Below are positions 11,340 through 50,789 of a stretch of 64,000 nucleotides of DNA, piece by piece (within the stretch, counting starts at the first letter, position 1; each line of letters starts with the position of its first letter). The notes below the pieces were generated by a model that searched no databases, was not told the origin of the DNA, and worked only from the letters and a program-made list of their open reading frames with translations. Where the stretch lies: positions 33,666,001-33,730,000 of the forward strand of contig NC_090333.1 in the NCBI RefSeq assembly GCF_035084215.1, read 5' to 3'. The position numbers and the translations under genes were made by a program. The stretch is from Heptranchias perlo (Eukaryota).

Positions 11340-11556
11340 CATGATGTGGAGATGCCGGTGATGGACTGGGGTGGACAAATGTAAGGAGTCTTACAACACC
11401 AGGTTATAGTCCAACAGCTTTATTTAAAATCACAAGCTTTCAGAGGCTTCCTCCTTCATCAGGTGAGTCACCTGACGAAGGAGGAAGCCTCCGAAAGCTT
11501 GTGATTTTAAATAAAGCTGTTGGACTATAACCTGGTGTTGTAAGACTCCTTACATT
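11340..11556. mobile_element. Palindromic Penelope-like mini-element with two opposed hammerhead motifs
   Basis: 89-bp arms (11378-11466 / 11468-11556, 2 mismatches) plus a tail atgatgtggagatgccggtgatggactggggtggac. TSD ttcattaataga at 11328-11339 and 11555-11566. Confidence 0.85.
11468..11504 (+). ncRNA. Minimal type I hammerhead ribozyme motif (mirror copy on - strand at 11430-11466)
   Basis: tcac-CTGACGA-a-ggagg/aag/cctcc-GAAA-gctt-gtga: conserved core, stem II, stem I tcac/gtga, and palindromic AGCT in place of stem III. Confidence 0.75.
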
Positions 11557-17605: not shown

Positions 17606-17972
17606 TCCGTACAGTTAAGCTGCCTGAAAACTGTCTGTCTCTTCCTTCCTTCTTTCCTTGCTGTCTTTCTCTTCCTTCCGGATGTTTCTATGTTTCTGCC
17701 TCTCTCTTGTTTGTTTTTTTTTTGTTGTTGTTTGTATATTTGGTGGCCCTGCAGGTAACACCTCTCTGTCTGAACACTTTGATTGCCTTGGCAACGGGCA
17801 GTTGGAAAGACTATCTGTAATCACCAGGTATTTTTCTGTGATTTATAAATGCGAAAGGTTCGAGGATTTCATTTCCACATTCACCTGAGGAAGGAGGAAG
17901 CCTCCGAAAGCTTGTGATTTTCAAATAAAATTGTTGGACTATAACTTGGTGTTGTAAAATTGTTTACAATTG
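17606..17972 (+). mobile_element. Penelope-like element 3' end (pLTR-type) with hammerhead motif
   Basis: It ends in the same arm sequence as the other mini-elements (aaataaaattgttggactataacttggtgttgtaaaattgtttacaattg). The 5' boundary is approximate. Confidence 0.75.
17881..17917 (+). ncRNA. Minimal type I hammerhead ribozyme motif
   Basis: tcac-CTGAGGA-a-ggagg/aag/cctcc-GAAA-gctt-gtga. Confidence 0.7.
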
Positions 17973-18199
17973 AAAACAAGGGGGGGTGGGGAGGGGTGAG
18001 ATTGAGCAATGTAAGAAAAAAGCACTCGCAAGCTTGCAGTGTTTTTTTTTCTCTTACATTGCTCAATTTTTCCCCACTCTTGTTTTCTTGCGTTCTCCCA
18101 CATTATTTGGTGGAAGTGGCAGGGGACAGTGCAGGCTGAGCGTGCAAGACGCTGCACCATGTCTTTCTTGATAAGCCAGATGGTCTTTTCTTATCCTTT

Positions 18200-47679: not shown

Positions 47680-47975
47680 TAGCAACAGGCACCGAGCTCG
47701 CCGACCTGCCGCGGCCACGACACCGCGAACCCACCGTCAGACGACATCAGTCTGTGGAGCCAAACCCGCATCCGACAGGATCCCGGGGCCGCCCGGCCGG
47801 GAACCGATCGCTTCTCGAAATAATCCCCGACGTGTTGTGATCCGGATTGTGTCAACGCCGCTGGGCGCGATCATCGGCTAACTCCCCCTGACAAGGAAAA
47901 GCAATCGAGCCCCGCTTCACTGCCCCGTGAGGGCGCGCGCCAGACTCGTTGATTGTTACTGGTCCTCAACACGGT
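47680..47975 (-). promoter_or_regulatory. CpG-rich putative IPP promoter / 5' UTR
   Basis: High CpG density directly upstream of the IPP ATG. Confidence 0.5.
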
Positions 47976-49507
47976 CCGGGACAGCGGGTGGCGCTGAGTC
48001 CTCCGGGACAGTGGGTGGCGCTGAGTCCTCCGGGACAGCGGGTGGCGCTGTGTCCTCCGGGACAGTGGGTGGCGCTGAGTCCTCCGGGACAGCGGGTGGC
48101 GCTGAGTCCTCCGGGACAGTGGGTGGCGCTGTGTCCTCCGGGACAGCGGGTGGCGCTGAGTCCTCCGGGACAGCGGGTGGCGCTGAGTCCTCCGGGAACA
48201 GTGGGTGGCGCTGTGACCTTCCTCCGGGAACAGTGGGTGGCGCTGTGACCTTCCTCCGGGACAGTGGGTGGCGCTGAGTCCTCCGGGACAGCGGGTGGCG
48301 CTGAGTCCTCCGGGACAGTGGGTGGCGCTGAGTCCTCCGGGACAGCGGGTGGCGCTGAGTCCTCCGGGACAGTGGGTGGCGCTGTGTCCTCCGGGACAGT
48401 GGGTGGCGCTGAGTCCTCCGGGACAGCGGGTGGCGCTGAGTCCTCCGGGACAGTGGGTGGCGCTGAGTCCTCCGGGAACAGTGGGTGGCGCTGTGACCTT
48501 CCTCCGGGGACAGTGGGTGGCGCTGAGTCCTCCGGGACAGCGGGTGGCGCTGAGTCCTCCGGGACAGCGGGTGGCGCTGAGTCCTCCGGGAACAGTGGGT
48601 GGCGCTGTGACCTTCCTCCGGGACAGTGGGTGGCGCTGAGTCCTCCGGGAACAGTGGGTGGCGCTGTGACCTTCCTCCGGGACAGTGGGTGGCGCTGTGT
48701 CCTTCCTCCGGTGTGGAGATGCCGGTGATGGACTGGGGTTAACAATTGTAAACAATTTTACAACACCAAGTTATAGTCCAACGATTTTATTCGAAATTGT
48801 CTTTTCCACACTGCCTGAGGAAGGGGAAAGCCCCCGAAAGCTTGTGGGATTAAAAATAAAATCGTTGGACTATAACTTGGTGTTGTAAAATTGTTTACAA
48901 TTCCTTCCTCCGGGACAGTGGGTGGCGCTGTGACCTCCGGGACAGTGGGTGGCGCTGAGTCCTCCGGGACAGCGGGTGGCGCTGTGTCCTCCGGGACAGT
49001 GGGTGGCGCTGAGTCCTCCGGGACAGTGGGTGGCGCTGTGACCTCCGGGACAGTGGGTGGCGCTGAGTCCTCCGGGACAGCGGGTGGCGCTGTGTCCTCC
49101 GGGACAGTGGGTGGCGCTGAGTCCTCCGGGACAGTGGGTGGCGCTGAGTCCTCCGGGACAGCGGGTGGCGCTGAGTCCTCCGGGACAGTGGGTGGCGCTG
49201 TGACCTTCCTCCGGGACAGTGGGTGGCGCTGAGTCCTCCGGGACAGTGGGTGGCGCTGTGACCTTCCTCCGGGACAGTGGGTGGCGCTGAGTCCTCCGGG
49301 ACAGTGGGTGGCGCTGAGTCCTCCGGGACAGCGGGTGGCGCTGAGTCCTCCGGGACAGTGGGTGGCGCTGAGTCCTCCGGGACAGCGGGTGGCGCTGAGT
49401 CCTCCGGGACAGTGGGTGGCGCTGAGTCCTCCGGGACAGTGGGTGGCGCTGAGTCCTCCGGGACAGCGGGTGGCGCTGAGTCCTCCGGGACAGCGGGTGG
49501 CGCTGTG
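47976..49507. repeat. GC-rich minisatellite, 27-bp unit ccgggacag(c/t)gggtggcgctg(a/t)gtcct with 30-31-bp variants; roughly 50 units
   Basis: Direct reading; the 9-aa periodicity in the ORF track (GTVGGAESS / PEDSAPPTV) agrees. Interrupted at 48712-48901. Confidence 0.97.
48712..48901. mobile_element. Palindromic PLE-derived mini-element inserted in the minisatellite
   Basis: Tail tgtggagatgccggtgatggactgggg, perfect 48-bp IR (48744-48791 / 48855-48902), internal CTGAGGA...GAAAGCTT motif. TSD tccttcctccgg at 48700-48711 and 48902-48913. Confidence 0.85.
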
Positions 49508-49980
49508 GGTTTTGCCGAAGTCAATGCCTTTTTCCTTATTTGTTGACACCAAAAACAGACGACATTGAAGCAAAGTAAAAAGATAACTTTCCCTGTTAAA
49601 GAGTGTTTCAGACAAAACTGAAAGATTTTACACTTCTCCAAATTATTTTCATTTTTTTTAGGATGAATTGGTTTCCATTTGACATTTGAAAAACAACAGA
49701 AACAAAATAGCAGGAATGTCTGTTCTGGGAATCAAAATAACAAACTGAAAACTGGGCTCCACCGATCGCTTTGGCACCCTTGGAGAATGTGCTCAAAAGT
49801 TGGTGTTATTTATTTGACCATGGTAACTGGAAGTATCGGTAAGTGGGGCTGAGGAGGAGAGTGGTCGGGGTCAGGTTGCAGGACGGTGAATCGAGGCATT
49901 TAAAACTAGCGGTCGTCAATATAAGATCGTCACTAATAAATCCGATAGGGAATTCAGGAGAAACTTCTTTACCCAGAGAA

Positions 49981-50215
49981 ATGTAAGGAATCTTACAACA
50001 CCAGGTTATAGTCCAACAGTTTTATTTGAAAATCACAAGCTTTCGGAGGCTTCCTCCGTTGCATTAGGGTTCGGGTTAGGGTGGGTTAGGGTTAGAAGGA
50101 GGAAGCCTCTGAAAGCTTGTGATTTTCAAATAAAGCTGTTGGACTATAACCTGGTGTTGTAAGACTCCTTACATTTGTCCACCCCAGTTCATCACCGGCA
50201 TCTCCACATCATGGC
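49981..50215. mobile_element. Palindromic PLE-derived mini-element with telomeric-repeat spacer
   Basis: About 78-bp arms matching the 11340 element; tail ccaccccagttcatcaccggcatctccacatcatggc. TSD tacccagagaa at 49970-49980 and 50216-50226. Confidence 0.88.
50064..50095 (+). repeat. Short interstitial telomeric repeat
   Basis: TTAGGG TTCGGG TTAGGG TGGG TTAGGG TTAG. Confidence 0.85.
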
Positions 50216-50789
50216 TACCCAGAGAAGAGTAAGAATGCGGGAACGCACTATCACAAGGAGCAGTTGAGGTAAATAGTACAGATACATTTAAGGGGAAGCT
50301 AGATAAACACGAGGGAGAAAGGAATCGTAGGATGTGCTGATAGAGTTAGATGAAGTAGGGAGGGAGGAGGCTCTTGTGGAGCATAAACGTTGGCAGAGAC
50401 CCGTTGGGCCAAATGGCCTGTTTCTGTGCTGTGGACTCGATGTAACGAAAATGTGACACAACAAATGAAATAAAGGATTCAGGATTCAGACAGTGGAAAA
50501 GAACAGCACTACCAATGGAGGAAGTGTGTATGGCAGGTGTTACCAACAAGATACTTAAGGACAAAGAAGTCCATTAGTTCACCCATCCAAAAGTACTTTA
50601 TAGACCTCCATTGCAGCATCCAGTTGTTTCATAAATGCATTCAGGGGTTTCACCTTTATCACTATCAGGAAGTCCATTCCAAGTGTTAATCATTCCTGTC
50701 TCAGTCCTAAAGTAACCTTTTATTAAATAGTTTAAACATGTGTCCTTTGTTCTACTACAATTTCAATTAAAGAAATATTCCAGATAATT

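Follow-up and report, generated by a model that had tools for sequence, protein, structure and literature searches.

Telomeric repeats at the seam of Penelope-like palindromes in Heptranchias perlo are consistent with synthesis by telomerase

We analyze a 64,000-nucleotide stretch of the Heptranchias perlo genome (the window; NC_090333.1, positions 33,666,001 to 33,730,000, forward strand) in which a Penelope-like palindrome at 49970–50226 carries telomeric repeats between its arms. The arms, at 49976–50057 and 50098–50179, are 82 nt each and 95% complementary in an inverted-repeat comparison within the window. A preliminary description of this DNA, made from its letters alone, had proposed palindrome arms, a tail, an 11-bp target-site duplication (TSD) and a telomeric spacer, and this layout stands, with an exact match in a contig from read run X1. 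The features, in window coordinates, are as follows.

11378–11556, no strand assigned: sibling palindrome in which both hammerhead cores are kept and the centre is 1 nt, our reference for the normal state (alignment).
48744–48902, no strand assigned: second sibling palindrome, with a non-telomeric, asymmetric 63-nt centre (inverted-repeat comparison).
49970–49980, plus strand: left TSD, 11 bp, inside a high-copy host repeat (TSD search; repeat depth in read contigs).
49976–50057, minus strand: left arm, an inverted, 5'-truncated pLTR copy without tail, whose top-strand 3' end is the putative telomerase primer (arm alignment).
50058–50063, plus strand: G-T-TGCA, matching the cDNA of TERC bases 3' of the template (TERC comparison).
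50064–50095, plus strand: telomeric tract of 5.7 units, including one A>C unit and one unit 2 nt short (sequence; exact in the X1 contig).
50096–50179, plus strand: right arm, a pLTR copy from hammerhead helix II onward, catalytic core CTGAC lost (arm alignment).
50180–50215, plus strand: Penelope tail, 36 bp, on one side only (TSD search and copy comparison).
50216–50226, plus strand: right TSD, 11 bp (TSD search).

The intact TSD reads TACCCAGAGAA at both 49970–49980 and 50216–50226, and its edges overlap the element ends by 1–2 nt. Alignment to the sibling palindrome at 11468 defines a spacer proper of 38 nt (50058–50095) and assigns 50096–50097 to the right arm; G50095 is assignable equally to tract or right arm. 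This sibling retains an intact minimal hammerhead, with an extra nucleotide before helix II and a palindromic loop 3. Compared with it, both arms of the palindrome studied here keep helix II and have lost the 5' part of helix I and most of the CTGACGA core. Two of the four differences between the arms are variants frequent in the palindrome family. The telomeric tract is internal, lying at 33.7 Mb on the 89.4-Mb contig C9 of a 3.25-Gb genome. Elsewhere in the window, a GC-rich minisatellite of 27-bp units (47975–49505, ~1.5 kb) is interrupted by a sibling palindrome at 48712–48902. A single pLTR arm also adjoins an unrelated hairpin with 29-bp arms (17890–17972 and 17993–18075). For the palindrome's own hairpin a miRNA identity was rejected, all Rfam miRNA matches scoring below the gathering threshold.

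The X1 contig matches 50030–50122 with no differences at a depth of 31.9 (38.4 and 43.7 in the unique flanks). It reaches only 28 and 27 letters past the spacer, where our bridging rule asks for 31, and its reads may come from the same sample as the assembly. Among the matches listed for runs X2–X4, no contig spans the spacer. In a search for an orthologous locus, contigs of four other organisms (runs X9, X10, X11 and X13) left the unique flanks uncovered. We rule out an assembly artefact on the basis of the exact X1 contig, although this is not evidence independent of the assembled sample.

By its structure and its parent open reading frame, the host element appears to be an EN+ Penelope-like insertion. 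Long copies between the same pLTR anchors contain open frames of 915 and 911 amino acids with a reverse transcriptase domain (RVT_1, E 3e-10), which bears out the Penelope identity first proposed from the letters. The C-terminus of this frame has no Pfam match at E 0.01 and aligns to the GIY-YIG domain of a telomeric family described below (33% identity overall). An inverted 5'-truncated pLTR stands head to head with a direct pLTR, and the inverted pLTR, 30–40-bp tail, TSD and minimal hammerhead all resemble EN+ insertions as set out in the available portions of the published accounts. Those portions, by contrast, make no mention of telomeric filler at the inverted junction (PMC3846280, PMC8557442, PMC4209133). 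No account of telomeric filler at a Penelope junction turned up in our literature search, which did not extend to Repbase Reports or to most journals behind subscription.

The telomeric spacer is real and it recurs. Palindrome-family anchors number 116,071 in all, and a census requiring both exact 10-nt anchors, 20–170 bp apart, yields 24,150 palindromes genome-wide. Means over 50 palindromes among the matches listed are 110 bp for the inner span and 11 bp for the unpaired centre; most centres are element-derived, with foreign filler in about one of the 50 by eye. Non-telomeric centres are equally variable in length. Foreign fillers of 20–190 bp that are satellite-like, copied from the adjacent flank or unrelated occur in the centres at L025, L123, L128 and L215. 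Pattern searches combined with the two-anchor census place the 7-mer GGGTTAG between the anchors in only 8 of the 24,150 palindromes, and telomeric tracts of at least 13 nt in six, on contigs C5, C9 (the present locus), C13, C20, C21 and C26. The centre on C12 (L285), with a 10-nt tract, is kept as possible, and the one on C38, among the eight, is a normal centre with point mutations. All six tracts lie in the unpaired centre or seam, and none interrupts one arm alone. They span 2.5–5.7 repeat units, the one described here being the most degenerate. The repeats had been thought to replace the ribozyme core. The CTGAC core is indeed lost from both arms here, but the loss looks incidental, as three of the six telomeric centres keep both hammerhead cores.

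Several candidates were dropped from this count: three loci without an element (L035, L037, L129), three where the element had entered a tract or array already present (L092, L126, L104), five with the repeat in the flank (L095, L103, L121, L122, L125), two with long foreign filler containing one unit (L123, L128), one ambiguous single arm (L132) and one normal centre with point changes (L290). Insertion of the palindrome family into pre-existing telomeric tracts, with a TSD that duplicates repeat letters, is seen at L092 (C3:87.1 Mb), L126 (C1:93.07 Mb), L104 and L147.

We measured background outward from the same anchors, which gave 25 rows; after 4 duplicate rows were left out there were 21 loci, and after 8 loci in telomere-like arrays were set aside, 13 dispersed tracts, or 0.56 per Mb. 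Against this control, 1.5 tracts are expected over the 110-bp inner span and 6 are observed (4-fold, P 0.004–0.01); over a 30-bp centre the expectation is 0.4 (15-fold, P about 1e-5). The counts are small (6 versus 13 control tracts), and the test is conservative because some control tracts predate the insertions. An enrichment of 4- to 15-fold above flank background, in 6 of 24,150 palindromes, answers the concern that the locus might be a one-off.

The genome contains one RF00024 match, a TERC gene at G000:C13:20011180–20011727 (151.5 bits), whose template is 10 nt long, or 1.7 repeat units. Read as cDNA, the bases 3' of this template end in GCTGCA directly ahead of the repeat. Comparison of the spacer flank with this species' TERC, which the preliminary description had advised, gives an exact TGCA at 50060–50063 (4 nt) and five of six letters for G-T-TGCA, of which GT is alternatively readable as arm with one change. 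At the C26 centre all six letters agree, the first three being common to the arm. Such a TERC-flank start is present in 2 of 6 centres versus 2 of 13 dispersed tracts (P 0.56). The primer arms offer 2–3 nt in register in four of the six centres (P 2e-4, judged against the commonest family continuation), while at the present locus priming in register extends to at most 1 nt. At C20 both ends are extended, head to head. These flank starts and in-register primers at sister loci support the earlier suggestion that telomerase healed a break. Two further markers proposed with it did not hold up: a GGTTAG ending, found in only one of six centres and in 8 of the 33 dispersed tracts, is not diagnostic, and with respect to the tail both orientations occur, the G-strand running from the tail-less arm in four centres and from the tailed arm in two.

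A precedent for this arrangement is the type C TERC-ITS of Sola et al. 2021, which the part of that study available to us reports once among 41 loci (in Xenopus) and for which it proposes telomerase synthesis at a break; its TERC pieces, found by BLAST, measure 25–98 bp and show no preference for a transposon class (PMC8537989). As in type C, the TERC letters here come from just 3' of the template and precede the repeats with matching orientation. Unlike the published pieces, ours span 4–17 nt (4–6 nt at this locus, the longest in a subtelomeric array) and are found at about 340 dispersed loci, a figure extrapolated from contig C1 (PMC8537989). The spacer would work like a type C TERC-ITS and falls outside the published size range.

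Our data indicate that the signature extends well beyond the palindromes. The TERC-flank start followed by two repeats occurs 7,362 times genome-wide, and these matches are not independent, many arrays being copied within tandem units. Among 100 matches listed of the 7,362, 80 fall into two clusters at the ends of C1, the other 20 being dispersed; none of these 20 sampled dispersed tracts belongs to the palindrome family. The TERC match in the 20 dispersed C1 tracts, which were selected for TGCA, reaches at least 5 nt in 12 and at least 6 nt in 6 (P about 3e-4 each). Unselected dispersed tracts start with at least 6 nt of TERC flank in 2 of 13 cases. Telomeric sequence upstream of the flank is present in 0 of the 20 dispersed C1 tracts. 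In five distal telomere stretches we found no TERC-flank start in 5,899 units, whereas five other stretches near array starts contain 1–10 variants each; the flank therefore marks tract starts.

The second unit that follows the TERC flank carries the A>C change at 28 of the 7,362 sites, this locus included, and at least 7 of these are dispersed. Six other dispersed sites with the A>C unit have unrelated upstream DNA (L080, L263, L266, L268, L269, L282). A single donor was rejected, as the dispersed sites among 20 matches fetched of the 28 have unrelated upstream DNA. One possible origin is a telomerase mistake close to the template boundary, made on the first pass. A subtelomeric array also contains 23 nt of the spacer, A>C unit included. 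In the C1 end clusters (L202, L042, L062), an 8-nt TERC-flank variant interrupts telomeric runs every ~5 units; these clusters also hold one 17-nt copy of the flank, and the distal telomere stretches have neither. At L178 (start of C14), L247 and L062, repeats are followed by TGAA, a 4-nt match to read-through at the TERC 5' template boundary.

Judged from these comparisons, the telomeric centre would be one of a genome-wide class of short tracts written by telomerase, with nothing specific to Penelope. The suggested interplay between Penelope-like elements and telomerase stands insofar as the tracts recur at seams; it was overstated insofar as the same class occurs genome-wide, outside the family in all 20 sampled dispersed tracts. 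In their near-exact TTAGGG tracts, small deletions and, at four of the six, in-register nucleotides, the centres resemble the short ITS at double-strand breaks described in the available part of Nergadze et al. 2007; they differ in that the break here is a retrotransposon palindrome seam, at which tracts are enriched (PMC2246262).

The end clusters of C1 are mosaics of telomeric repeats and a second Penelope-like family. This family has a 744-amino-acid open frame with reverse transcriptase and GIY-YIG domains, 33% identical to the palindrome-family frame, and forms near-identical, polarised tandem units at chromosome ends. A copy lies at L239:4885–7116 (G000:C1:198.07 Mb), and others are at the ends of C4, C5, C8 and C14. 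A 21-mer from its 3' end occurs 1,672 times. Among 100 of these 3' ends listed, all lie in three clusters no farther than ~1 Mb from an end of C1 or C4, and the interiors of both contigs, as well as C2 and C3, contribute none. The 40 scored of 903 open-frame candidates agree with this end clustering. In 31 end stretches, the 3' ends of the family stand behind TTAGG in 14 of 14 cases, as do 360 of 362 units of an associated hammerhead-bearing 293-bp repeat, all in G-strand orientation. Distinct junctions from non-telomeric DNA into repeats number 22, of which 17 map to the second family or the 293-bp repeat; 12 of these 17 distinct truncated ends, among them those at the terminal arrays of C4, C5 and C14, start with at least 4 nt of TERC flank, some letters of which may be microhomology. 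The 293-bp tandem repeat, whose C-rich strand carries a hammerhead core, occupies many contig ends (L188, L245, L247–L251, L189, L191, L193, L197, L199; ends of C6, C7, C9, C11, C15 and C17), and it is probably a non-autonomous passenger of the telomeric element. A subtelomere-type cluster at G000:C1:0.92–1.04 Mb, ~1 Mb into the contig, has an inward-pointing G-strand and is possibly a misjoin or an old chromosome end.

The second family invites comparison with Athena and Coprina, EN-deficient telomeric Penelope-like elements in which, in the portions of the accounts available, copies truncated at the 5' end acquire telomeric repeats there (PMC3846280, PMC8557442). Our family is likewise end-clustered, polarised and joined behind TTAGG, but it has a GIY-YIG domain and resides in a vertebrate, and the palindrome, unlike those elements, is interstitial with a TSD (PMC3846280, PMC8557442). 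A 2023 list of telomeric retrotransposons gives, for vertebrates, only the anole Tx1 element (PMC10088271). We found no vertebrate telomeric Penelope in the literature within our coverage, outside which lie most subscription journals and Repbase with Repbase Reports.

We propose that the tract at this seam was very probably written by telomerase, because multiple repeats come from a 1.7-unit template, starts fall in the 3' flank, primers are in register and such tracts occur away from the palindrome family. As to where and when, we lean towards telomerase acting on the free 3' end of the left arm at the Penelope seam, during integration. The two arms would be cDNAs with their 3' ends meeting at the centre, a picture partially supported by a TATAAA ~27 nt past the usual arm end in a longer copy and by the arm differences that match family variants. 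The two cDNA ends of the integration intermediate would most likely still be unjoined when telomerase acts. Telomerase would set the non-telomeric 3' end of the left arm 4–6 nt 3' of the normal alignment region, copy the TERC 3' flank and the template, go through about five translocations and then be displaced. End-joining would fuse the tract to the right arm through a 1-nt overlap, and the second strand would be filled in. Human neotelomere formation, as described in the available part of a recent preprint, is similar in that telomerase adds repeats to non-telomeric 3' ends aided by short microhomology, and different in that it makes a new chromosome end, whereas synthesis here would be short and the end rejoined (bioRxiv 10.1101/2022.10.31.514589).

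The timing during integration would have less support than the telomerase steps, and here a second account deserves consideration. The palindrome may have been complete when it broke, at a cruciform or hairpin tip, and telomerase may have written the tract only then, with small deletions and end-joining to follow; we regard this as the less probable course, with an appreciable chance of being right. Centres of perfect palindromes are fragile, an intact TSD is expected on this account too, and telomerase-written tracts are frequent genome-wide, at ~0.56 per Mb. Later breakage is favoured because 9 bp of the C20 centre are duplicated around the tract, resembling a staggered break, because most of one arm is missing at C26, and because both arms here are somewhat short, 45 nt from the anchor against a median of ~53 nt (~10 nt shorter). 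Non-telomeric centres are, however, as variable in length, and short arms need no second event. Integration timing is favoured because the arms at C5, C13, C21 and the short C12 case measure 54–59 nt, the common end of untouched arms, with no visible loss. Telomerase-type starts also follow truncated Penelope ends at telomeres, where there is no palindrome.

Pre-existing telomeric or subtelomeric DNA might instead have been captured as end-joining filler without telomerase at the site, which we consider improbable. Foreign DNA does enter palindrome centres, as a satellite-like piece (L025), flank DNA (L123) or ~190 bp of filler (L128), and subtelomeric arrays hold flank-type variants, one of them with 23 nt in common with the spacer. 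Capture would, however, usually bring along repeats upstream of the variant, which are seen in none of 20 dispersed tracts and neither of the two flank-bearing centres, with one exception (L267) among 20 fetched A>C matches; the A>C unit at unrelated dispersed sites with differing upstream DNA likewise indicates no single donor. Least probable, if only slightly so, is the proposal that the Penelope reverse transcriptase switched template during the inversion, onto TERC or onto transcripts of C-rich telomeric Penelope arrays: although the tract sits at the seam, starts in TERC-specific sequence, and telomeric Penelope units hold variant-bearing repeat runs on their sense strand so that a putative RNA may exist, a jump onto TERC is unlikely because a single copying pass of its 10-nt, 1.7-unit template into the 5' flank would be expected, whereas tracts of 2.5–5.7 units imply repeated translocation and 0 of 6 continue into that flank, a jump onto array RNA would not favour flank starts, and the signature also occurs at dispersed sites without the palindrome family (0 of 20).

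Weighing against telomerase action during integration are the small numbers, the 4-nt exact flank match and the register of at most 1 nt at this locus. The tract itself is probably a functionless repair scar. A wider proposal, which we offer tentatively and rate somewhat below even, is that telomerase in this species routinely takes over Penelope cDNA 3' ends: it would alternate with an endonuclease-bearing, telomere-targeted Penelope at chromosome ends and occasionally act in interstitial integration intermediates, of which this locus would be a fossil, and starts several bases 3' of the template would mark hundreds of healed breaks.

Taken alone the locus is of modest weight, and the TERC-flank signature and the telomeric Penelope family add to it. 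The signature allows telomerase synthesis to be told apart from captured telomeric DNA, an issue of long standing for short interstitial tracts, and hundreds of loci in one genome are available for testing it. The telomeric centres support the view that a Penelope inversion has free 3' ends at its centre at some stage, a step of which little is understood. Unless Repbase already lists it, this end-clustered, endonuclease-bearing Penelope with intact open reading frames would be without precedent in vertebrates.
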